Part shown: in pieces, positions 11,981 through 45,307 of the stretch
Numbering within the stretch: position 1 is the first letter of the stretch
Layout of the letters: each line of letters opens with the position of its first letter
Origin: Eukaryota sp. GEM-RC1
Taxonomy: Eukaryota
Direction of reading: 5' to 3'
DNA length: 64,000 nt
Assembly: GCA_040285855.1 (NCBI GenBank)
Contig: JAUFOQ010000003.1
Location: 930,001 to 994,000, forward strand
Translations under genes and position numbers: made by a program
Notes under the pieces: model-generated
Database searches by the model: none
Told to the model about the DNA's origin: nothing
Seen by the model: only the letters and a program-made list of their open reading frames with translations

Positions 11981-12969
11981 CAGTCTACCCTCCCAATATG
12001 ACCACCCTCTGAATAAGTCCACCCTCCCATTATGACCAAATTTTCACTGTCCGACTTTTTGTCTTCCCTTATCCGATTTCCTTACTCCAAATAAACCGGT
12101 TTCCTTTTTCGTTTCTTATATGTCAACATTATCGTGATCTCTTTCGATCATGTTTTTGATGGTTTTCATAACAAAACTCACATTTTTGACTTCACATATC
12201 CATATCCTATTGCTACAACATCTTTGATGGCAAAACGTGTTGTTAATTATCACTTGGCTAAGACAATCTCATGTGTTCTGGTCAGATCTTATTCCTCATA
12301 ATCTCCTCCCCCTCGAACCACTTTAGATCATGTCAAACAATGTTTTGGTCTTGTCTGTGGGGGAAAATTGTGTTGAGAGGGAAGCTCTCTCAAAAACAGT
12401 CACTTCCCCTCAGTAACGCCTTTTCAGCATTCCTCCTTCATCACAATCACCAGAAATTCTGTTGTGCACTAGTACGTTCACAGTTCTCTCCTATTTGAAT
12501 GTTGGTGAACATTTTTTCCTCCAAATTACGCTTATCCGCTTGCTGTGAGTCATAGCACTTCATCCTCTCCCTAGATAGGCGCTTTGAAAGTTATTGCCTT
12601 CCTTTTATCGCGATCTGAAATCCTGTACAAGATCATTGCTTTGGTGATCTTAGCCCTTACACTTTCTCTCTATAGTTGTTATCTGTTGATAAAAGCTGAA
12701 AGTAGTGGTCAAACTCTCTGTAGCAGTTCATCTTCATCAAAATTGTCACAATGTCTCCTTGTTTTTCCCCAAACATCTGTTCACCTAACTGGTGATAGAT
12801 CCAGCTCCAATTCTCCCTTCAATAGACGCACGGTTGTCTTAGCTTGTTGTTTTATTTGTTATAAACGATCGACGATCGCTGTTCATTCTATAAAAACCAA
12901 ACCCTCCGAATAAGTCCACCCTCCCAATAAGACTGGTCCGACACCTGGTCATATTGGGAGGGTAGACTG
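11981..12969. mobile_element. Non-autonomous Tc1/mariner-superfamily (pogo/Tigger-like) element
   Basis: Perfect 24-bp TIR CAGTCTACCCTCCCAATATGACCA flanked by TA on both sides; internal ACCCTC subrepeats. Confidence 0.9.
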
Positions 12970-13060
12970 TATAAGTTTTTATGACAAAGATATTGATCTC
13001 GATCAACAAATTTCACTAAGAATAAAACACACTTTCACAACAAATAGATTAAATGTATCA

Positions 13061-29997: not shown

Positions 29998-31338
29998 ATG
30001 GCCAAACATGAGTGGCAACACATCTTTGATCAAGACTCCCAGGTAGTTGTACCCGAAAAGGTCTCAACTGCTCATCCTCGCCTTCCCTCTCTCAGTCAGT
30101 CTAGAAAACCACCATCCTTACGTGTAAATCGTATTTCTGCGACGTCCATTACCCGGTCTCTTCAACGTGATGTTGCTCCTACTCTTAATCCTCCAAAACC
30201 TTCTCCTTCTCAAAAGCTCCCATCATCGTCCGTTTCCTCCGAGATCCTACCTTCCCTGCGAAAGCCATCATTAAAGCCACGTATCGGCTTCCAAACCATC
30301 ACTAAACCACGCTTTCAAACCTCTTCAACACAAACACATCTCCTCCACTCCTCTTTCAACTACGTCTGTAAAGAAACAAACAGAGCCCCCTGTCAAATCA
30401 AAAAGATTGAAACCTCTCCTGAAACTGCGGAAACAATCTCCTCTCAATCAAGCAACGTCCCATGTGAATTAATCCAACATCCTAACTTACCTCCACCCCC
30501 TCTGTTTAATCTAACAATCAATCCACCTAAAGCTTCCATAGTTGATCTTCATGACCTGTTGAAAGAAGATGTTGATTATCAGCAGCTGTATAAGGAAGTT
30601 CTTGTTAGTGTAAATGTTTCAACAGATTTCTGGAGCAGTTTACTGTTTGGTATTGTTCCAAAGATATTTGACCGAATTCTTTCTGATTCAGATTGTTTTC
30701 GTGTTGTTGTTTGTTTCTCAGTAAAAGATCCATGTTCTTTGGTTAATTGTTTTAAAACTAACCCACAATTATTTCAAACATCCTTTTTTAAATCTGATCA
30801 GTTGAAGATTGCTTTCGCACAGAATTCTAATTGTTTTGAATTTTTCAAAAATCTAATAGTATTTGGAAAATTTGTCTTTGGTAATTTATTACTCACACTA
30901 AATGACGTTTTTCCAGACAAAAATTCTGAACGAGTTTTCTGTCGTAGATTCTATCAACTCTCCGTCACTCCACACAATTTTCAAATTTCTCAAGAATTAG
31001 AATTTCAATCTCTTGTTCTTTCACTTCTACACTATTTTGTCCGATACTCACCGGAAAACTCTTTATTTGTATGTCTTCATTGCTGTAAGACATTGCTATT
31101 TCATAGCTCATACTGCTATCTATCAAAGCCTCCGTATAATGAGAAGATTTTTCACTGTGGTACAATTTTATTAGAATCTCTTTCGAAGGACTTGCTAACA
31201 AAAGCATTGGAAACATATAGTCTCGATGGAGTTTTGAAATTTTTGGAATTGAATTTTCCACATTTACACAAAAGACTTTTTTCGGCTAGTAAAACAAATT
31301 TAAAAATTGTTCAATCAGTCATATGGTTCTGGCAGTGA
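29998..31338 (+). CDS. Hypothetical protein (S/P-rich N-half, helical C-half)
   Basis: Uninterrupted 446-codon ATG ORF; no family recognised. Confidence 0.65.
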   Translation: MAKHEWQHIFDQDSQVVVPEKVSTAHPRLPSLSQSRKPPSLRVNRISATSITRSLQRDVAPTLNPPKPSPSQKLPSSSVSSEILPSLRKPSLKPRIGFQTITKPRFQTSSTQTHLLHSSFNYVCKETNRAPCQIKKIETSPETAETISSQSSNVPCELIQHPNLPPPPLFNLTINPPKASIVDLHDLLKEDVDYQQLYKEVLVSVNVSTDFWSSLLFGIVPKIFDRILSDSDCFRVVVCFSVKDPCSLVNCFKTNPQLFQTSFFKSDQLKIAFAQNSNCFEFFKNLIVFGKFVFGNLLLTLNDVFPDKNSERVFCRRFYQLSVTPHNFQISQELEFQSLVLSLLHYFVRYSPENSLFVCLHCCKTLLFHSSYCYLSKPPYNEKIFHCGTILLESLSKDLLTKALETYSLDGVLKFLELNFPHLHKRLFSASKTNLKIVQSVIWFWQ

Positions 31339-34300
31339 AATATTAAAATCTGGCGATCCAATGAAATAACAGTCAGCTGAATTTAGAAAACGAATTCTAT
31401 AGAAATCTGGCGAAACAATTGTCGGATCAATTCCTTTCGGATTAATAACATAAGTTCGTTTAAATGCAGATTCCATTTGTTTTTTGGTATTGTACCGTGA
31501 AAAGAAATCAATTAAGCCTATTGTAATTGATTTTGTTGCGTTATTGATAACAACGAACATGGAATAGTCAATAATTGATAATTGTTTAAATAGCAAAGTA
31601 TCTCGAGTAAGAGTTTTTAGAAATTTGTTCTTGTCTTTTACTGAGATTGTCAGTGGGTATGTATGATAGAAATTTAAAAATCTTGGTCCAGTTTCACTGT
31701 AGACTCTGCGGTAGCAGTTCGACGCCATACCGATCCCTTTAAATCAAAAAATTTAAAATAATTGGAATATTCTTCGTAGTTGTGGTGATATCGCAAGTTT
31801 TCCTGTACAATGAAGTATTCAATATTTTCTTCGTCTGGTTTTGATCCTTTTAAAATTTTAGAATGTTTCACATTTTTACAAACTCCAAATATTCCTAAAA
31901 TTGGAACAACAAAAGAGGAATTCAACAACGATAAAGCAAAATGCGTTAAAAATGCAAATGAATTTTCAAAAATGTTTCGGCTTCTCCAGAAGTAATTTGT
32001 TTTAAAATCAAAGTTCCATCAGATGATTTACAAAACTTACTCTTACTTTTTCCTCCTTCATTTTTCATTGAAACAATACTAGAAATTGAATTCATAAAAG
32101 CAGAGTGATAATCTTTACCTAGTTTCAACATTCGAAAAGCTTCGAAATTTCTTCCACAGTAGAAATGCACATCTGCTAACTTTTCTTTTCCAGAAGATAG
32201 GCTCATACAGACGTCAATACATTGGACATCAAGAAATTGTTGGACAGATTCAGATGAATGAGTATTTGAAAAGTAAGCCGTTACGTTGCGACTAACTGTA
32301 TTTTCTTCAAAAATTGGATCTGGTAAATTATTTAAAATTTTCTGATATTCAGGGGACTGTAATGACGTTGCTAAAATCGATAATGAATCACTACAATCGA
32401 CTACATGGTGAGCCCCATCGAAATTCAGAAGCTTTGGGGATTGAAAATTCGATATAACAGCTGGAAAATCATTCAAAACTTCAAAAATTGATGTTCTAGA
32501 TAACGTAAATCCAGAGGGAAAACCACGAAAACTAGCCGTGTCAGTAGGAGAACAACTAATATAACCATCAGTTGATCTACTTTCAAAGACGGACTTCTCA
32601 AGTCCAGGAGATGAAGCTACTGGGATAATAGTAGAAGAGAAATCAAATGAGGTATCACCAGAATGATCGGTGAGTAGAGGATCATCATCAGTTAACAAAT
32701 GGGAATATTGCAGTTTTTTAAGTTTTTCTTTCTTTTCAGTGGTGTAGAATGAAATATTTCCGAAACTGAAGATGTTTTCTTCTTTGCAGTTTTTGGCTTT
32801 AGTATAGTGATTTGATTGAGACTCTCATGTAAAAAACTTTCATCAGTCGATGATGAATGTTTGACCGAACCATTTCCTTATCACCTTGATCTTCTTCTCC
32901 AACTGCATTGTCATCACTTTCAACAGAGAGAGACATTGAAAGAACATCCAGCGTTGAAAAAGAGGATAAATTAAATTTCTAGAGGAATTAAAATTTTCAT
33001 TCCAAGAAAGTGATGATGAAATAATAAGAGAAATGAATGATTGTAGTTGAAGAACTGCTAACGGAGATCGTGAAATCGACTTTAAAAGAGCTTCAAAACG
33101 AGTAGAAATGGTTTTAAAATCAGAGTCAAGGGTTTGAATAAGTGCTGTGGAGGTCGATGAACCAATTAGAAAGTGATTTTCGACAACAAATGACCGCAAT
33201 TTTAGCACAAAATCTCTAACAATATTGAACTTTGATGTCAGAATTGCGTCAACACCCTCAGTTAACTTAATCTTACTAAAATTATTAACTTTTCCTGGTC
33301 CCAATAAAGATTTACGATACAAAATATCTTTCTGTAAATACAACACAATATCAAAATATTTCAATTTGTACCAAGAAACTGTTTGTTCACACTTAGGACA
33401 TTTAAGATGCTGACCGTGAAACAAGAATGCAATCAAATGACAAAAAGAGAAGGAATTACTTAGATCCAACACGTGATGATCTTCATCACATGACGAACAA
33501 GCTCCATACAACTTGAAAGTGGAAGAATCATCGTCACTTTTCGGATGTTTCTCAGCTGAAATAACAAGAATTTGATCACCAAATATCAACACCCCTAAAT
33601 GATCAACTACTGACAAACCATTACACTGACAGCAAGTGCTGAGCTGGCGCCGAGCTCTACTAGCTTCCAAATTGAAAACATCAAATGAATGTGTCGTTGA
33701 TTGATTATAGAAATAAGAAACTTCACACTGTCGAAGATCCTTATGATCTCCATTCATAATACAATCCCGAAACCACTCAAAAACAGAAACATCAAACCGA
33801 GTATAAGGGAATATCATTCGATAATGGAAAGGAACACACAAATTCACTTGCTTATTACCCTCCACAGCAGTGTTAACCACAACTCCCCAGATTACTGGAA
33901 AGGAAACTGAAGAGAAGTAGGAGGGGAGGACTGGTACAAAGGAGGAGACGTCGTAGTGGAGAGGGCGTACTAGGAAGGGGATGTGAGAAGGGGAGAATAG
34001 GAATTTGGGAGGGAGTTCTAGGCCAGGGAGAAAGGGGGAATCATGGAAATCAATCATTTTTGAGTGTTTGATTTGTATTGGAAGGTAATTTAGGCAGGTT
34101 GTCGTGGTTGATTGCTGCGTGTATGAGGAGAATTGAAGGCTCTTTGATTGGCATTGACTCGTGATGAAACGAAACGCGTTGAAGAAGAAGAGATCAAAAT
34201 TGATTGGATACGTTGGGCCCTCAATCAAAAGTGATAAAGAATTGATGGGCAACGATATCAGATTATTTGAAATCTTTGAAAAATACCCCAGTCTAATAAA

Positions 34301-35220
34301 TAAACCATTGAAAACGTGGTGGCTAATGTTGGAGAAGAGAATTGACAAATGTGGTAATGGTGAAATACCATAATAATTTGAAATTCCGGCCAAATGATTA
34401 CAATTTGGTAGTATTTCAAATATATCTTGAAAGACTGATCGAAAAAAGAGATCAATAGTTCCAGAAGCAATGATGATGATTTTGTCAAATTTTAAAAGTG
34501 TTGATTCAAATCTACATTGTAAAATGTTTCTCATTCGATGTCTTAGTTCAGCACAATTATCCTGACAAAAGAAGGAAGATTCAACGAGCAATTCAAAAGA
34601 ATGAATGGAAAAGGACGTGTTCCAACAAAAGAGGAAGAATTACTCAAAAGAAACGTTGATGACGTCAGCAAGACACGTGGACGACGTGATTGGAAGAAAG
34701 AAATTGACGGAAACTTTCCTTTAACGAAATCAGAACTATGTTTCACCAAATGACTAAGTGTAGAACTACATTTAAAGAGTTGACTAACCGCAGTAAGATA
34801 TACAGGAAAACTTTGTCTACAAACAGAAAGAACAGAGTCTACAGCAAGTTCAGGATTGATAATAGAGCTAGGAACAAGCGATGTGTTCACAATGTCATGG
34901 AGAAACACTGACAAATCAGTAATTAAGTGAGCTGGACTTGTGGTGGAATGGGCATCGAAATCAGAGAAGTTGTGAAAGAAGGTAGAGAAGGGTAAGGAAG
35001 TACAGAAAACACAGGCATGTTGATCATTACACTTGCTACACACTATTGCAGTACACAGAAAGCATTGATGTTTACGTTTGAAAGAGTAAAGAGAGGTGTT
35101 GCAAACTCCGCAACTACTGGGTTTGAAATCAAGAGATGAATCACTGGAGATATGTGACCAGTTATCACTGAGAACTGATACTGACAGTTCTGAATTGAAG
35201 ATTTGGGAGATGGTGGGCAT
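31315..35220 (-). CDS. FAB1: FAB1/PIKfyve-like PtdIns3P 5-kinase (split by several frameshifts)
   Basis: FYVE-like CGVC..FKRKHQCFLC..CSKC; kinase motifs GGKSKSKFCKSSDG, LKQI, DLKGS, IIDYSM, GLIDF and PTIVSPDFYRIRF across five ORFs. Confidence 0.85.
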
Positions 35221-35280
35221 CAAAGTGTGACATATCTGAAATCGTCCAGGTTGAATTTGTCCACCTAACAATCCATCCCT

Positions 35281-36256
35281 ATGAATCCATCTAAGCCCAA
35301 ACCCCCAAGGCTACCATCTTTATCCATCAAAAGGATCCCAATACCACACTTGGTGGAGCTACTAAAAAACTTTTGTTCCTTGTGCACCTCCTAGACCTCG
35401 ACCTCCAGAGCAAAAAACTGTGTCTGCTGCTCTTCCTGGACTTCTTAAGTCTATTGAACGTAAAATACAACCAAGAAAGCCCCAATCCCAAAAACGTCCT
35501 CTAAAGCCTAAGAAAATGATTGAAATGGGCGAAACCTTCTTCTCTGCTTCAAAATCATCAGATTCTGTTCCGATATCATTTGCTCCTATAGATGAACTTA
35601 AACCTGAATTTTTATTTGAAAACGCTAAACCAAGACAATTAGTTTTTGAGGAACGTTACCAACCTGCTGAACTTCCTTTTGTTCCAACAGCAGACCCTCT
35701 CCCTCAAGATCCTCAAGATAAGCCTGTATATCATAAGACTCCTGAAGCAGGGGTGACTTTCTCCAGAGCTGCATCAGAGTTTCTAGAAAATGGTAAAGTT
35801 CCTAATGATTTGTTTCTTCTACAACTTCCTGTTTCATTACCGTGTGAATCATCGAGATCAATTCCAGTCAGGAAAGCTCCACCCACAACTCCAATCCAAG
35901 CTAAAAGGAAACAGCAAGCTTCAGAGAAGGAAGTAAATGAAGCGAGAAAGAATGGTGCTAAGAAAATACCGAAACAGTTCGAACCTTTCCCAACAAACCA
36001 TGGTGATTCATATCCTTCTCATTTATCTTCAGCACCTTCAGGAAGACTTGGTAAGCTTGTTATACATAGGAGTGGGAAAATGAGATTAGTGTTTGAAGGG
36101 GGAATTAGCTTTAATCTTTCACAAGGGATACCAGTATCTTTTGATGAGAGAGTTGTGTCTATTTCAGCCAAACAACGGGAAGACGTCCTTGAAAGTTCGA
36201 CCATGGTTGAGTTGGGCAAAGTAGGATGTAGAATGGTTGGTGTTATTGATGTTTAA
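35281..36256 (+). CDS. POLR3D: RNA polymerase III subunit RPC4/C53
   Basis: C-terminal LFLLQLP..GRLGKLVIHRSGKMRL; frameshifted N-terminus RLPSL..TLGGATKKTFVP from ATG 35281. Confidence 0.85.
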
Positions 36257-36441
36257 GGTCTTGTTAATAGTCCGATTGGATTTCTGGTGTAGAGTCTACA
36301 CTGTAGACTGATTTGTAGTATTTTTTAATATTTATTGACATTGTCTATTGATTACTCAAAGGAATGTTGTTGCACATGGAGCGTACTATCACAGCAACTA
36401 AGTATGAGATTAAAAAAGTGGTTATAAATAGACTATAATGC

Positions 36442-36759
36442 TTAGCATTCCATTGGTGTAGATTCTAGTGCTTGAGAAAAGCGGTCCAGTACAACTGTCG
36501 TCATGTCTTTCAAAGTGGAAAGACCTCCTTGCATAACTTCTAGCGGAGGAACATTGTTTCGAGTTTGAATACGGAAGTTTAAGACAGGTTCAATAGGATG
36601 TGGTATACTGTAAGCGCAAAAGTCAACATCAGGACGCCGTGAGACGACATTTCGAAGAGCGTTTCCTATTGTGTGACTTTCGTCAGTGATTTTGAATGTA
36701 GCACATGAATGGTCTTCAGCATCATAAACAACACGGATTTTATCTAATGGAGACTCCAT
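36442..36759 (-). CDS. POLR1D: RNA polymerase I/III subunit RPAC2/AC19
   Basis: ATFKITDESHTIGNALR..VDFCAYSIPHP..NFRIQT. Confidence 0.9.
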   Translation of the reverse strand: MESPLDKIRVVYDAEDHSCATFKITDESHTIGNALRNVVSRRPDVDFCAYSIPHPIEPVLNFRIQTRNNVPPLEVMQGGLSTLKDMTTVVLDRFSQALESTPMEC

Positions 36760-36813
36760 TTTAGTGATAGTAAGGGAAAAGAAAACAGTTTCAATTTCTG
36801 TCTTAATCCCAAG

Positions 36814-37665
36814 TAGGATTGTAATTTTGAGTCAAGCTGACTCACTGAGCTTTGAGTCAGTCAGCTCGAGGCAGGCTCATTTGACTCATGAGTCGAGTCA
36901 AGCCTGTATCTTTGTCCGTGAGTCAGCTCGAGTCAGGCTCATTTGACTCATGAGTCGAGTCAAGCCTATATCTTTGTCCGTGAGTCAGCTCGAATCAGGC
37001 TCATTTGACTCATGAGTCGAGTCAAGCCTATGTTTCTGTCTGTGAGTCAGCTCTACTCAAGTTTACTCTAATGAATGTAATTTAGTACAATTTAAACGTA
37101 TTCTAGTACAATCACCTGTACATGGAATTAGTAGCAGTTCTCTGTATAAATTCATTGCATGTTGATGTGTGGGATGAGCTGACAGCTTACTTATCAACAG
37201 GCATAGTCGATGCTGCGGTGGATCCACTAGATTGGTGGAAACGCTACCAATCAGATTATACTAGCTCAGCTTGCTCAGCTCGCGACTACTTAAGCATTCG
37301 GCCAAGTTCAGCAGCAATTGAACGTTTGTTCTCTGCTGCAAACCAAATTGTAACAAAGGAAAGGGCTAGACTATCTGCAATACTGCAAGGTGTTTATTGT
37401 GTTTACACTCGTGGTACGGAATAGGTGTATTAAATTCAGATCAGTAGAAAACAGTAGAGATTTGTGTTATGTTATAAAGTACAATAGAAAAGAGCATTCA
37501 AAATGAGTCAGCTCGAGTCAAGCTCGGTTGACTCATGAGTCAAAGTCAAGTCAAAGGTAATCAAAATGAGTCAGCTCGAGTCAAGCTCGGTTGACTCATG
37601 AGTCAAAGTCAAGCTTCAAATTGTAGGCTTGACTCGACTTGACTCGGCTCATTTTAACAACCCTA
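36814..37665 (+). mobile_element. Internally deleted hAT element
   Basis: TIR TAGG(A/G)TTGT; 8-bp TSD ATCCCAAG (36806-36813, 37666-37673); ~62-bp subterminal repeats rich in GAGTC/GACTC; hAT dimerisation remnant DPLDWWK..ARDYLSIRPSSAAIERLFS (37122-37424). Confidence 0.95.
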
Positions 37666-37673
37666 ATCCCAAG

Positions 37674-37800
37674 ACCACCGGATCTTCAACCTGTGAATTT
37701 CTCTTAAGATGAATTCCCCATAACGAATTATGGACATTCATCTACACTCACAGTGCACATGGGCTGTGGCGGTTCTATCCCTTGCGGGTCCGCCACTGTT
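37674..37800 (-). ncRNA. Candidate Fanzor omegaRNA scaffold overlapping the ORF 3' end
   Basis: Minus strand: GUGGCGG-A-CCC-GCAA-GGG-AUAGAA-CCGCCAC, then nested stems CUGUGAGU/AUUCACAG, AGAUGAAU/AUUCAUCU and CCAUAA-UUCG-UUAUGG. Position matches known TnpB/Fanzor omegaRNAs. Confidence 0.7.
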
Positions 37801-40153
37801 TCTGTTATTGAATCTTCATTGTTGTTTGTACTCTTTGCTGCTCTCTTCCGTCTTTCTTCAGCTAACTTGTCAGAGAAACACATTGGTCGATCCTCACCAG
37901 CGAGAGTACACTCAACAATCTTTAGAATATTCAAACAGCTATTGAAGTCTCGATTCCAGAGTTTATGACATTTTTTACAACGCACTAAACCCCAACACTT
38001 GAGTTCATCGGGCTCTTCCTGCCACAACAGCTTATCATCTTCGTCCTTCCAACTAGACCAATTCCTCAGCGCTGATAGACGATTTGCCTTCTTGTCAACT
38101 CTTCGCTTCTTCTTCCGGAAGTTTGGATCCTTGACTTTAAGGAAGGTTTCCGTTTCCCCTTCGTCATCGTTGTTCTCAGAACATTCATGGCACTGAAGAG
38201 ATGTCCTGAATTCGTTAACCAGAAGAACCTGATAGCCAGCTTTTTTGAACAACTTTCTCGATCCTTTCCCCATGGATGGAGGCTTGTATTTCCTATGCCT
38301 TGACTGACTCCAATCACCTATGGCCAACCACGTGTTGGTTGGATCTCCGTAAACTTGACGGAATCGATGGAGCATTTTACGTTCACTTTTTTCCTTGTAT
38401 ACTGATTTCCAATAGCTCCATTTGCGCCATTTAGATTGATGGTACAGAGACTCCATTCTATTTGCATACTTGTAGAATTGTTGGACGTACGCTTTGAATT
38501 TTGAAAAATTTGTTGTTTTGGAAGTAAATTCTGAAAATTCTGTCTGAATCTGTTCAGCTGTCAGTTGTCTTCCCGAAATTTCGTTAAAAGAATAGTTTTT
38601 GAAGGCTTGGTTCTGAAATACATTGTATTTTTTTTGTTTTCCTTCGTGCCTTCGAGTTCCTTGAGTATATCTCATTTTTTGAATTGATTTTTCTTTTGAA
38701 ATGGTCTCTTTTTACTTGATTTTTTGACCTCATTATTCTCTTTTTGGAACTGGGCTTTATGCCTTTTAATTTCTTTCAATCTCTTCTTTTCATATGTTTT
38801 TGAGATTTTTGGGTCAAGTGGGGAGCACAATGCCCAGGATTATCAATTTCTTCCTGGGTTTTTCTTCCAACCAAGTACAGAATATCCCATTGGTTAGGGT
38901 CCCCCACCACGACTTTTTTTATTTTTTAAATCCTCTAATTTTTCAGGATGTAAATCTTCCACATACTCCTCTTTTTCCTCCGGAGACTTGGCAGAGTATG
39001 GTTTGAACAGTAGATCATTTCTGGTCATCATGAGACTGATGGATTCACCATTGGTGGTTATCTGGTGACCAAATGAATACATCTTTTGAAGGTGTTCAAG
39101 TATTTGTGATCAAGATTCAAATACTGGCTCCAAATTTGATTTTTAAATAAATTAATGTTTTCGCTCAGATGTGTTAGATTATAACCTTGAACTTGAGGTT
39201 TAAATAATTTAATCATAGCCATCGTATCCAATCGAAGGTGATCAGGGATTAGGCTGGTGGATTGTGGAAACATACGGTACATCTTTGGTGGAATCTCATT
39301 ACAGGAAGGGTTATTCTCAATCAATTTGTTGAGAACGAAGGCCTCTGGTAAGAGCTCCAAAGGCTTTACCTTTAATTGGTATTTGAGTCCTTTAGAGTCT
39401 GGCTTAAAGCTTTTGACAAATGTAATGAAATTTTGATGTTCATCTGATGGATTTGCCAGATCTCGGTAAAATCAATATTGGATCCTCTGCCTTCTAAAAT
39501 TTCTTTAAGGATATTATTGTACAACTTTTGCAACTGGTCTTTTTCGACTTTTTTAAGTGCATTGTTTTTAATAATTTTTAGTTGTCCATTTAAATTAAAG
39601 AAGAGTTCCCATGTTTTTCCAAATATTCAATAAAATGGGATGAAATATTATTTTGATACATTGTAACAATCTCAGTAGCTGTGTAACTTAATGTACGAGA
39701 CATATCAGAGTACATGACATTGGGAATTTCCATATTCATGGGGAGAAGATGTTGGATATAGAAGCATCCCAATTGAATTTTCAAAGCATTGTGCTTTTTG
39801 CCTGGAGTACTTTGAACAATCTCAGTTACCCATTTAAGTATTTCACTTCCATCAATATTTTCCTCATTTTTAAATCTTTGATGAGCTAATGGAGACAAGT
39901 ATCCAATAGTCCAGAGCAATTGGTGGACACTTTCTTTGGTCCATTCTACCGGATTCAATTCCTGGTTATCAAAAGAGTTCATGCAAAAGCCTTGAAGTAG
40001 CAGCAATGCACGTTGTTTAATTCGGTGATGATTTATAGAAATTTCATTAACCAATAAGTTATTATCACTCCAAACAGATTTTAGGGTTACTTTAACCGTT
40101 TTTTCACCCGGGCATTTCAGCAATTCTTGTGTTTCGACTTGAAGGAAATACAC
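37728..40153 (-). CDS. Fanzor1 (TnpB-family RNA-guided endonuclease), frameshift-split
   Basis: KTVKVTLKSV; IVTMYQNNISSHF; YQLKVKPLELLP; FPQSTSLIPDHLRLDT; YSFGHQITTNGESISL; RuvC-I VVVGDPN (D at 38899-38901); IGDWS..MGKGSRKLFKKAGY; RuvC-II VNEFRTS; zinc finger CHEC..CKKC; RuvC-III WNRDFNSCLNI. Confidence 0.93.
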
Positions 40154-41648
40154 AAAAGGCTTTGTAATTCAACAATATCGTTAAAATGTTCACGTAAACA
40201 TTTCAAGTTTTGTTCAGATGTGAAATCTGTAGAAACTGGTGTGGGAACTGAATAACTTTCATTTTTTAAAATGTTCTTTACAACAGTAACCCAATTCAAA
40301 GATTTTCCAGTTCTAGGTCTGTAATAATTTCTAATAACACGACCCAAATCTATTAGCTGAATTTTTGAGTTTTTGAATTGTTTTAAAAAATATTTGTAAA
40401 AGAGAGGACACTGAATATTTGAACAATTCTCTGATTTTAAATTAAATTCATCCAACGTAGAACTTGCATCATAACCAATTATCAGACCACAGTCAGTTAA
40501 ATCTAAATAATCATTAAACGCACTAATCATAGATTCCTCTTGATTAAACGCTTGAACATTCACTCTAGCATGCTCAGAATTAGGTGACAGAACTGAATCG
40601 CAACTTTGTTGTGTAGTGAATATAATTGATTCTACAATTGAAATTACTTGGTCCTGTACCTGAACTGTTTGAGTGATAATTGATGTGATTATTTTTTTCT
40701 CTTTTTCCTTTTCAGTTTCTTTAGTAGCTGCTGAAGCTTCAATCATTTTTACAAAAATGCACTTAATCGAGTGTTTGTGATCTAACATTAAGGTTACGTT
40801 TTCGAAAGGATCTTTTCTTTTTTTAGACTTAACTGGTGATTCTTTTTCGTTTGTTTTTTCATTTGTTTTTACTGCCAATGGGCATTTTCTTATATCATGA
40901 CCAGTGTTTCTACACTTTGAACATTTACGCCCAATTTGTTTTTTCACCAGTTGGGGTTCGTTTTCATTATTATTGTTTGATCGTTTTTGTTTTCTTGGAG
41001 GCATATTGCTGACAGTGGCAAGCCTTTTTCCTGGATTAACGTGGCTGTCCAGTTTTAAGTTCAATCTGATACGAAATTGAGAGGGATCAAATTGATGATG
41101 CATAATTTCATTTTGAAAATCTGTCATCATTATACAGTGATCAATGTGACCAATTGTTTCAACGTTAAATGTCTTGAATAAAACTTCAATAAAATACAGA
41201 ACAAATATGCCACAATCATAACCATTGTCCTGTTTCACAGAATTAATGTGACAATGGTAAAAGTTGTTTGGGCAAAACGATTGTATAAAATCAATTTTTG
41301 AGGACAACAAATTACTATTAGAGATAGAATCCATGAAGTATAACGTTTCAGTCATGAAATCCATAACACATAGTCCCCAGTGAGTTCCAGCAAATCCGTC
41401 AATAATACCATTGTTCATGAGAATAAGAACAAGCCGACAATCTGCATTTTTTTCTCTTATATCATGATAAATAACGTCTTTCTCTAACGTTAGAAAGTTA
41501 AATAAATGATAAAATCCAATAGCTTGATTGGCGAGTGGGTAATCCAAACTGATATTATTTATGGAAAAAGAAGATGGAATAGCTCTAACCATTCACATTC
41601 AGACAACAATGTTATGTCTTCAAATTCATGTGAGTTAAATGATACCGG
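40117..41648 (-). CDS. Ulp1/SENP-family (C48) cysteine protease domain, CCHC zinc knuckle and linker; probably N-terminal part of the Fanzor polyprotein
   Basis: DITLL..EWL, GTHWGLCVMD, YFMDS, KQDNGYDCGIFVL (H-D-Q-C residues); CSKCRNTGHDIRKC at 40882-40923. Confidence 0.85.
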
Positions 41649-41710
41649 TCCGGGATTCGACTCGATATCACCATCTTTGGTTAAATCTTTAACAAACAAA
41701 TCAATCAAAC
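41646..41710 (-). other. 2A-like ribosomal skipping (StopGo) sequence
   Basis: LIDLFVKDLTKDGDIESNPGP is an exact match to D(V/I)ExNPG|P; core at 41646-41669. Confidence 0.85.
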
Positions 41711-41894
41711 AAAGTTTGAAATTGTGTTTATTCTCCAAATCAAAAGTGAATTGCTTTTGTCGAGTTTTACAACAAGACACGGACCACTGCGGTATTAACT
41801 CATCAGGAGTTGCAGATATCAAGCTATAAGCCTCTTCTCTGCAACTGCCCTGAGTTGTTAATCCTGGGTTAGGGCCGTAGTCCCCACCCAAATT

Positions 41895-42082
41895 CATAAC
41901 TGAAAAGACGGAACTTTCAGTCTCAACTGGATACAAAACATCCAGCCGAGGAGGATTGGAACCTCTTATTGTGTGAGGAGGGTCGGAACCTCCTGAACAC
42001 ATAACTGAAAGGACGGAACTTTCAGTCTCAACTGGATACAAAACATCCAGCCGAGGAGAATTGGAACCTCTTATTGTGTGAG
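41895..42082 (-). repeat. Two 83-bp direct repeats (105-bp period) built of hairpins
   Basis: 41895-41977 and 42000-42082 differ at two positions; stems CUCGGCUGGAUG/UAUCCAGUUGAG, CUGAAAG/YUUUCAG and GAGG/YCUC. Confidence 0.9.
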
Positions 42083-42231
42083 ACATCAACAAACCTGATG
42101 GAGTCATGAGACGGAAATAAGTCACTGTCGACATTGTTATTGATTGTTCATCACTTTCCTCTCAGCAGGATTCCGTTCATAAGGGATTTTGATTTTGCCA
42201 ACAGTTTTCTTTTCACTTTTTTCTGCTACTG

Positions 42232-42660
42232 ATGCAGCTTTCTCAGGTATCAGCGTCTTGCTAGTCCTAACACGCTTTGATTGACTTACTTTCTTTCTTG
42301 AAGGTGTTCGCTATATCTGCACTGACTGGTGCTACAAGTCTTATTGCTGTCTTCTATGCTGCTGTTAGATTTAAGGAATACGAGCTTCTTCTCATTCTGG
42401 CTTTTGGAATTCTTTCCCCATTTGCTGAACTTGTCTGCAAGGACGACAATAGCTTCGACTCTTCTTCAGGTCTAGAAATCATGGGTAAGTTCCTTACTGC
42501 TGCGTTGTGTAGAAGTGGTTTATGTCTTCCTATAATGCTATTCCACAGTGACATAATAGCCACCATCCCTTTAACTATTGCTTTAAGCGGCGCTATGCTT
42601 TTCTACTCCTCGGTATTCATTTTTGTTGAGAAAGTTGCTCCTGACAACGACTCCTTTTAG
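42232..42660 (+). CDS. Vps55/LEPROT-family small membrane protein
   Basis: ATG 42232; intron 42247-42303 (GTATCA..CTAAC..AAG); four TMs; GKFLTAALCRSGLCLPIMLFHSDII. Confidence 0.78.
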
Positions 42661-43137
42661 TTCCTGTTTTGTTCATTGTAGATAAACTCAATCAAACAGT
42701 ATCCCTTTTATCTTCATATCCGTCTCTTCCTTATAGTGTCTCTGTAATAGTGTGATTCCTTTGAGTGTGGGTATACACTTTTGACATGATCAATGCTAAA
42801 TATCACATGTCAGTCTTGTTACTTGTACTTGTTCTCTTCTTAAATCAAGATGCTCTTTCATACCCTAGATAAACAAAATGATAGCTATGGATTGTACAGA
42901 GTTTATTGATTCTATACATCTAGATAATGCACACAAAACTTAAACGCTAACATGGAAGGATAATGGCCTGTATAAAAGGACACAACAGACCAAAAAAAGA
43001 CGATATGGGGGGAATTGTTGGGGAGATGAGACTGCTGAGTGGATGGAAGGGGAATTAAATTCAAACAACTAGAAGATAAACCTCACAGACGGATCTGATC
43101 TTACCAAACTACTTAACATCTCTCTCTATATCCTCTT

Positions 43138-44524
43138 ATGCTACACCATTACGAAGTTCTTGGTGTAATCGGTGAAGGTACGCTTACGTTTCCTTTTGAT
43201 CAGTCCTTTTCACTGGTCCTCTTTTTCTCGAACATAGACTCATTGCAGGGGCCTATGGTGTTGTTCTCAGATGTAGAAACAAAGAAACAAATCAGACTGT
43301 AGCCATTAAGAAATTCAAAAACACTGATGACGATGAAGCTACCAGAAAGACAACTATTCGTGAAATACGAATGCTCCGTCTTCTTAAACACCACAACATT
43401 GTCACTCTTATTGAAGCCTTCCGCCGCAAAGGTCGTCTTTATCTTGTTTTCAACTACGCTGAACGTAATATGCTCGAAGTTCTCGAAGCCCAGAAAGGTG
43501 GTCTCCCACTCAATAGAGTTCGATGGTTCATCTTCCAACTTCTCCAGGCTCTTTCATTTACACATCACCACGGAATTCTTCACCGTGATATCAAACTTGA
43601 GGTAATGCCCATATTATTTAGTTTCTAATAGTAGAATCTTTTAGTTACCAATGACGACACATTAATGCTCTGTGATTTTGGCTTTGCCAGAACTTACAAC
43701 CATAGAGATAGTCAGCTTACAGAATACGTGGCTACCCGATGGTATCGTTCACCATCACTTCTTTTGGGGTTACCGTATACTTCATCTGTTGATATTTGGG
43801 CTACTGGTTGTGTTTTGAGTGAATTGGCAACTGGTGAGCCCTTATTCGCAGGTGATTGTGATGTAGATCAATTAAATTTGATTCTATCATCAGTTGGACC
43901 TCTTCCTGCTTACCTCAGGGATTCATATGTACGCCAGCCTAGATTTCGTCGACAAGAGGACAACAGGAGGCGGAGACATGCATCGAAGAACGACTTTTTC
44001 AAGAGGCTGATTCCATATCTCTCTCCTGCTGGGGTAGATCTACTACAACGAATGATTGAGCTTGATGAGAGAAAGACAATTACAGCTGAAGAAGCGCTGA
44101 AGCATCCTTTTTTGATGGTCTTCATGAACAGTTTAATAAAATAGTAGCAACAAGTAGGGGAGAAGAGTCATTGACGAGTAGAGAATGTCACTCGCGACGG
44201 AAAACCAATGATTTGCGATTAAAGACACCGTTTAATGGTCTTGAAATGACTGAAAGCTCGCCCAATGTACTCAATGGATTAGGTCAGCGATCAATGTCTG
44301 GTCCAAAGCTCACATTGCCGGCAGTTGGTCACGATCTCTCACTTAATAGTACACAGGGTAAGCGTTTTCAGTCACAGTTCAAGCCTGCTTCAAAGAATCC
44401 ACTACCACAACCGAACTTTAACATGGATCTTCCGCTGAGCAACTTGTTTGGTCGAACAACACCGATACCTCAGATTAGTCAACACTCGAATATTTCAAGG
44501 CCTTTGCACATGACTTATTTATAG
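43138..44524 (+). CDS. CDKL-family (CDKL5-like) Ser/Thr kinase
   Basis: Splicing introns 43178-43248 and 43602-43634 restores GEGAYG, VAIKKFK, EAFRRKGRLYLVF, HRDIKLENLL, DFG and TEYVATRWYR; probable frameshift in the T run at ~44110. Confidence 0.9.
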
Positions 44525-45307
44525 AATCTTTCTTTCTTGCATATGCACTTTATGCTTTTCATTTTGTATATTGTATCTTAGAACTCGGATTGCCGCTTTT
44601 TGGCATGTATGTCCGGGTTCAAATTTAGAACGAAGTTTTCTGTGGGGTTTTGACTCTTTTGAATAGAAAACACATCTCGTATTATCTAGATGCTTCATTT
44701 GAAGTTTGATTTTATTGTTCGTTTGTTCTCCATAATTGCTTTATTGTTTCTTAAATCAATTTTTCTATCAGTATTTGTATTTCTTACAATCAGACTGCCT
44801 ACAATGTACAATCTGATTTTGACACGTTATTCAAAAAAGAAGTCAGAAATGTCAGATGGGTCAACTCAAAATGACGTGCAAGCAAACTTGACTTGAAGAC
44901 ATCGTGATTACTCAAATTTGCATTTAAGCAAACAGAAATAAATACGGTAAGGAGACACAACGGAATCAGAATAATGCACTAAATGCACAATGAAAGAATT
45001 CTTTTAAAGAGCACAATGAATCTCTTCAAAAATGATGGTCGTTGTGATAAGTTGAGTTACTCAGAGGATAACCGTCATTGCCTGAAGGCTTCATTGTGGA
45101 TCTGTGGAACACTATTCTAATAATCAAAGACTAGTGGTGAATTACTTGATAAATCCAATGTCTGTTCCCGAATTGGAATGGTGAGAAAGATTGGTGATCA
45201 GCAACCGCCAGTGTTTATCATTCACGAATTGAAACGGTCTGTAAAGAGAAGGTAAAGCCGGCTGATCGATCAAAAACATCTGACCTCAACATTTTCCTAC
45301 CATCTAG

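Follow-up and report, generated by a model that had tools for sequence, protein, structure and literature searches.

In the window, a 64,000-nucleotide stretch of a Eukaryota sp. GEM-RC1 contig whose own numbering is used throughout, we identified two hairpins at 37796-37691 of the minus strand that overlap the end of a Fanzor1 gene and probably represent SL1 and SL2 of a Fanzor1 omegaRNA scaffold (probability roughly 0.6). This reading draws on position, fold stability and analogy, and the hairpins are likely an already known kind of element, a Fanzor guide-RNA scaffold. The first-pass annotation had arrived at a scaffold as well; place, strand and layout do fit an omegaRNA, but the hairpins go unscored by three covariance models and an HMM derived from distant relatives, and for this reason we regard the omegaRNA reading as plausible but unproven.

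On sequence grounds, the ORF beside the hairpins is a true Fanzor1 homologue. The gene spans 40530-37731 of the minus strand, with full-length coverage spread over at least four different frames, and its C-terminal RuvC/TNB ORF (38711-37731, minus strand) occupies a single frame that closes with TAA at 37730-37728. A Pfam search with this ORF returned PF07282 (Cas12f1-like TNB domain, 1.2e-07), and the convincing matches among solved structures were Fanzor1 proteins only, SpuFz1 (8gkh, E 1.3e-11) and PpFz1 (9cf0, E 5.5e-11). When aligned with eight relatives, the RuvC residues E167 and D255 and the zinc-finger residues C174, C177, C245 and C248 proved invariant, and the first RuvC (RuvC-I) Asp, identified by eye, probably lies in the upstream frame beside 'GDPN'. 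Collectively, the domain match, the invariant residues and the Fanzor1 structures, with the RuvC-I Asp assigned by eye, point to a TnpB-like RuvC D/E/D set and zinc-finger TNB. Twelve full-length relatives (609-700 aa) align over 40123-37782 in the successive frames -3, -1, -3 and -2, indicating a gene covered over its full length but interrupted in frame; the window copy has at least four frame breaks and no intact full-length reading frame. The window protein also continues for 45 residues past the RuvC end, a tail absent from the eight aligned relatives, and between its zinc-finger Cys pairs it carries an insertion of ~40 residues (37980-38190, minus strand) with a basic run, RKKKRR, resembling a nuclear localisation signal.

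The shared strain tag leads us to take Eukaryota sp. GEM-RC1 for Skoliomonas sp. GEMRC, a free-living soda-lake metamonad. Among 497 candidates, a protein search yielded 10 matches, the best of them 96% identical ('hypothetical protein GEMRC1_003904 [Eukaryota sp. GEM-RC1]') and the other nine at most 36% identical. The 90% cluster of GEMRC1_003904 has four members on four contigs, one identical to the window ORF; the proteins of the paralogous loci in the public Skoliomonas sp. GEMRC assembly are KAL0248670.1, KAL0232936.1 and KAL0241194.1. Judging by these proteins, the Fanzor gene family is young, with at least four near-identical copies in Skoliomonas sp. GEMRC. The last 27 residues are identical in the four copies at the protein level (estimated ~0.1, not significant). 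A further paralogue cluster, P0027 (491 aa, three members), covers the N-terminal half of the Fanzor and begins at 40530; it runs continuously through the window breaks near 40154, 39615 and 39455 and ends with the window frame at 39061. Three breaks are therefore specific to the window copy and one, at a short A-run (39061-39109, minus strand), is common to both. A close protein of at least 574 aa was not found, the 12 matches all being 31-37% identical. The frame breaks may reflect decay or homopolymer assembly error, the latter being possible since the Skoliomonas sp. GEMRC genome is described as an Illumina-corrected Nanopore R9.4 assembly (PMC11316075).

Inspection of the minus strand, which is the sense strand of the gene, revealed an SL1 candidate (37796-37766) lying wholly within the coding tail. 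Here 37796-37790 pairs with 37772-37766 over 7 bp, and the interior holds a 3-bp inner stem of CCC (37788-37786) and GGG (37781-37779) capped by a GCAA loop (37785-37782). An earlier description of a 7-bp GC stem around CCC-GCAA-GGG is accurate for the stem and its contents but not for its composition, since one of the seven pairs is U-A and the other six are G-C. A predicted single-stranded linker of 12 nt (37765-37754) leads to the SL2 candidate (37753-37691), a 63-nt hairpin of three tiers in which 37753-37746 pairs with 37698-37691 (basal, 8 bp, wobble G37747-U37697 included), 37743-37736 with 37714-37707 (middle, 8 bp) and 37734-37728 with 37723-37717 (apical, 7 bp, wobble U37734-G37717 included), under a UUCG loop (37727-37724). 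The Fanzor stop codon, UAA in the RNA (37730-37728), falls within the apical stem. The minus-strand sequence and RNAfold confirm the three-tier hairpin at 37691-37753, its UUCG cap and the stop codon in its stem as first annotated, and the sense-only G-U pair noted with it is one of two such wobbles; both, like the GCAA (GNRA) and UUCG loops, exist on the sense strand only. The hairpins share 23 codons, stop included, with the end of the Fanzor ORF, and 69 nt of the ~106-nt candidate scaffold lie inside it.

RNAfold recovers every described helix, with pair probabilities mostly of 0.93-0.99 and of 0.98-0.99 across the SL1 candidate, which also appears in the minimum-free-energy fold. The 127-nt interval containing the hairpins folds at -42.5 kcal/mol in the sense direction (z -3.12, 3 of 200 shuffles as good) and at -35.1 kcal/mol in antisense (z -2.22, 4 of 200 shuffles as good). 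Relative to a GC-adjusted mean, 37691-37800 of the minus strand scored -3.19 sd, a value undercut by 63 of 12,778 segments of 110 nt taken from both strands (top 0.5%), most of which overlap hAT repeats or three other loci; the hairpins are the most stable sense-strand fold adjoining the Fanzor stop codon. The GC-richness previously ascribed to the region is mild, at 0.49 over 37700-37849 compared with 0.37-0.48 in the flanks and 0.371 in the whole window. We found no inverted copy of the hairpin region upstream of the gene beyond matches of 7-9 nt, no second copy within the 64-kb window, and nothing from Rfam over 36500-41000 besides one 21-bit chance match. With GC adjusted for, the strongest fold anywhere in the window (-5.2 sd) is a different one, at 12861-13020 of the minus strand.

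These features recall the characterised Fanzor1 RNAs. The three solved Fz1 omegaRNAs, as described in PMC11423790, all have a 7-bp SL1 bound by RuvC/TNB, a variable middle and the guide last, and measure 75-150 nt with scaffold and guide together. Fz1 omegaRNAs are reported to overlap the coding 3' end (PMC10432273); in the same account SpuFz1 has a 75-nt scaffold that spans the right inverted repeat, followed by a 14-15-nt guide that extends past the conserved end. Fanzor RNAs are further described as abutting the right end of the element and as possibly processed from mRNA (PMC10530073). The window hairpins likewise lie on the sense strand at the 3' end of a Fanzor1 gene and overlap its stop codon, and the predicted stem supplies a 7-bp SL1 with a modelled probability of 0.99.

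SpuFz1 (Spizellomyces punctatus, 8GKH) and PpFz1 (Parasitella parasitica, 9CF0), whose proteins are the window's best solved relatives, also carry a sense-strand omegaRNA at the gene 3' end, composed of a 7-bp SL1, one further stem-loop and then the guide (PMC11423790); the likeness of the candidate window RNA is one of position and predicted fold. Their scaffolds differ in lying mostly or wholly past the stop codon and in measuring 75-90 nt with the guide, as opposed to ~106 nt for the candidate scaffold, and SpuFz1 differs additionally in that its scaffold spans a 30-nt terminal inverted repeat, whereas none was found for the window hairpin region. The omegaRNA of GtFz1 (Guillardia theta) resembles the candidate in overlapping the coding 3' end, over 17 codons (PMC10432273), and, at ~150 nt, in its 7-bp SL1 (PMC11423790); however, it has four stem-loops rather than two, and the overlap in the window is the longer one.

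We then compared the hairpins with the 3' ends of the closest Fanzor1 genes, which belong to giant viruses and metagenomes. Of 318 relatives confirmed in a metagenome scan, 80 loci (29-40% protein identity) were retained, and a viral-contig scan contributed 24 more, many named as giant-virus bins; 27 of these 104 loci (L001-L104) were set aside because they were duplicates or truncated by a contig end, and 77 were tested. Most relatives carry a conserved nucleotide element around the stop codon, and a pattern search found its terminal motif in 47 of the 76 loci having a stop codon, corresponding to 37 distinct sequences. Single-sequence folds of 30 relatives gave one architecture, an SL1 of 8 bp (closing U-G counted), a linker of ~10 nt and a 7-bp closing helix that encloses one to three hairpins; conservation stops with the 3' strand of this helix, which forms the right end of the element. 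Directly past this helix, near-identical copies diverge (L016, L018, L023, L024 and L039; L077, L079 and L080). Examples of these RNA loci are L017:3545-3658 and L077:4031-4129.

Covariation supported this architecture. Across 15 sequences, chosen for alignment without large insertions, 91.7% of cells were paired and 15 pairs changed on both sides, where shuffles gave 9.1 +/- 1.5 such pairs and slid controls 2-7. R1, the covariance model built from them, detected the RNA in 53 of the 77 loci, every time in sense orientation and where the protein match has its 3' end, and gave one extra weak match elsewhere; its 48 model-fitted matches, an alignment that leans towards the model, contain compensatory changes in 25 of 28 pairs. 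Measured from the RNA start, the relatives' stop codon lies anywhere between -5 and +88 nt and so moves over ~90 nt of the RNA, and because it slides in this way the conserved entity must be RNA or DNA rather than protein. No Rfam family matched at three of the relatives' loci. Collectively, the 3' RNA of these relatives behaves as expected of an omegaRNA.

The candidate in the window agrees with this RNA in position, strand and the order of its parts, SL1, linker and closing helix. Its 7-bp SL1, 12-nt linker and 63-nt hairpin compare with an 8-bp SL1, a linker of ~11 nt and a single multi-tier hairpin of 59-68 nt in the nearest clade, where the multi-tier hairpin stops at the right end of the element; its stop codon, at an offset of ~+70, falls within the relatives' range; and an enlarged SL1 loop occurs both in the window and in L048-type relatives. 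In a tree of 58 sequences the window Fanzor is sister to the single-hairpin clade with a support of only 0.53, and the wider clade of 23 sequences around it, which includes members with the R1-type RNA, has a support of 0.98. The relatives' RNA differs from the candidate, however, in being AU-rich and in its conserved linker and terminal motifs, which are absent from the window.

None of the four models supported homology between the window hairpins and the relatives' RNA. With default filters R1 gave no match at the hairpins in a search of the whole window, and with filters off it scored 1.8 bits (E 5.3 in 1 kb) at 37692-37801 of the minus strand, the fifth of six matches. R2 (SL1 and linker, 33 sequences) gave 14 matches at E <= 10 and R3 (nearest clade, 13 sequences) 20 matches in 30000-45000, none at the hairpins, and nhmmer with the relatives' RNA gave 19 matches at E <= 100, none in 37600-37900. 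The models also miss L048, L059, L069 and L071, of which L048, L069 and L071 have the relatives' linker and end motif by eye; their sensitivity is therefore limited, and the result on the window is a weak negative, yet still a negative. Layout alone is likewise weak evidence, because a loose descriptor (7-bp hairpin, 8-15-nt linker, 7-bp closing helix) matched 105 loci on both strands of the window.

The failure of R1, R2, R3 and nhmmer to detect homology and the frequency of the layout by chance are what would be expected if the hairpins were no guide scaffold. They would then be a structure of the coding tail and 3' UTR, due to chance or acting at the mRNA level, or a transposon-end structure at the DNA level, with the true omegaRNA elsewhere or lost. 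That the antisense strand also folds fairly well (z -2.2) and that this copy of the gene is broken point in the same direction. We nevertheless judge this explanation quite improbable, given that only the 63 segments noted above outscore this fold beside the stop codon, that both wobbles and both special tetraloops belong to the sense strand only, and that the element is without a transposase that uses end hairpins. Moreover, every characterised Fanzor1 has its omegaRNA at the gene 3' end in the accounts of PMC10432273 and PMC10530073.

Reading the hairpins as the scaffold, we examined where it would end. In the relatives the element ends with the 3' strand of the closing helix, and by analogy the 3' strand of the SL2 candidate most likely completes the scaffold, at 37691. 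The interval first annotated as scaffold, 37674-37800, thus holds hairpins that fit (37796-37691) but probably extends too far, and with an end at 37691 the remaining 37690-37674 would be guide or flank. We place the predicted guide at 37690-37671 of the minus strand, ~15-20 nt past the last helix, inferring this from the divergence of the relatives' flanks and from the 14-15-nt guide reported for SpuFz1 (PMC10432273).

The DNA further downstream has been altered by a non-autonomous hAT insertion of 852 bp (36814-37665, plus strand), which is separate from the Fanzor element. A perfect 8-bp target-site duplication, ATCCCAAG, flanks it at 36806-36813 and 37666-37673, its ends form imperfect terminal inverted repeats with 62-bp subterminal repeats inside, and 37107-37424 still holds part of a hAT dimerisation domain (PF05699, 1.6e-12), the combination characteristic of hAT elements. 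The Fanzor hairpins end 25 nt before the insertion, and an Rpb11-like start codon follows it after another 54 nt; the hairpins and the next 25 nt are unaffected, and the duplication copy at 37666-37673 is native DNA. Judged from the duplication, the Fanzor 3' flank before insertion continued into 36813-36760, up to the start codon (36759) of the RNA-polymerase Rpb11-like gene. The first-pass annotation cites the rule that such RNAs take their guide from DNA past the element end; the predicted guide at 37690-37671 is native, but beyond 37666 the sequence is the later hAT insertion and not the original flank. We also considered the sequence ending at 37665 (minus strand, starting TAGGGTTG) as the Fanzor right end and rejected it; it resembles the relatives' terminal motif but is the hAT inverted end with its perfect duplication.

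Rejoining the flank in silico by removal of the hAT raises the question of whether the two hairpins make up no more than the beginning of a longer scaffold, continuing through 37690-37674 into 36813-36766 and split by the hAT, which would have disabled the guide RNA of this copy. The downstream 60 nt then fold into a branched hairpin (37679-37674 with 36771-36766, 36810-36807 with 36777-36774 and 36804-36798 with 36788-36782; probabilities 0.57-0.99), and both the four stem-loops of GtFz1 (PMC11423790) and the passage of the SpuFz1 scaffold across its right inverted repeat (PMC10432273) offer precedents. A 19-nt inverted repeat (17/19) between 36772-36790 and 42200-42218, upstream of the gene block, would fit such an extension, but it is A-rich and one of 71 such pairs in 15 kb. 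Since P0027 begins at 40530, and a search of GEM-RC1 proteins of 270-860 aa gave no close one for the part upstream, a left end at 42218 is doubtful. The relatives' element, moreover, stops at the helix that closes the compound hairpin, and the extension would stop 7 nt short of the Rpb11-like host gene start codon at 36759. We therefore consider a longer, split scaffold unlikely and retain the two-hairpin scaffold ending at 37691 as the preferred reading.

Several further features occupy the neighbourhood upstream of the gene. At 40120-41592 of the minus strand, one open frame encodes an Ulp1/C48 protease domain (residues 48-146) together with a CCHC zinc knuckle, and its residue 355 is where the Fanzor N-terminus begins as delimited by P0027; the frame may be a protease-Fanzor fusion, or its upstream part may be unrelated. 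Among GEM-RC1 proteins of 270-860 aa we found no close one covering residues 1-354, and Atlas gave Ulp1-family leads only for the Ulp1 part (scores 0.78-0.83). Just upstream of this frame, a 200-aa ORF contains a 2A-like peptide motif, DGDIESNPGP, near its end (41646-41675, minus strand) and a 105-bp tandem repeat of 1.9 copies (41781-42096) that is among the window's most stable predicted folds. Neither of two upstream ORFs was found by exact look-up in the protein collection, and no tRNA genes were found in 36000-43500. The whole gene block is flanked by the A-rich 19-nt inverted repeat described above, which is a possible terminal repeat or chance.

In the mechanism that we propose, the 3' end of the Fanzor transcript would give rise to the RNA, which the nuclease would hold through the 7-bp SL1, on its RuvC/TNB face. 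With the scaffold ending at 37691, the next 15-20 nt, from 37690 downward, would serve as guide and direct cutting of element-free sites. A bolder version of this reading, which we offer only tentatively and consider unlikely as a whole, is that of a live Fanzor1-omegaRNA system from a lineage not sampled before and related to giant-virus Fanzors, in which the scaffold has diverged beyond the reach of the relatives' models and lies two thirds within the coding tail, its 69 nt serving both the protein and the guide-RNA handle.

The hairpins leave ideas on how Fanzors work unchanged, and they define 106 nt to co-express with a repaired protein in a cleavage assay. If confirmed, they would add a Fanzor1 guide RNA from Metamonada and provide a natural case of a scaffold situated mostly within a coding tail. 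Confirmation would also link this protist element to giant-virus Fanzor1 lineages, whose common RNA architecture has the support of covariation.
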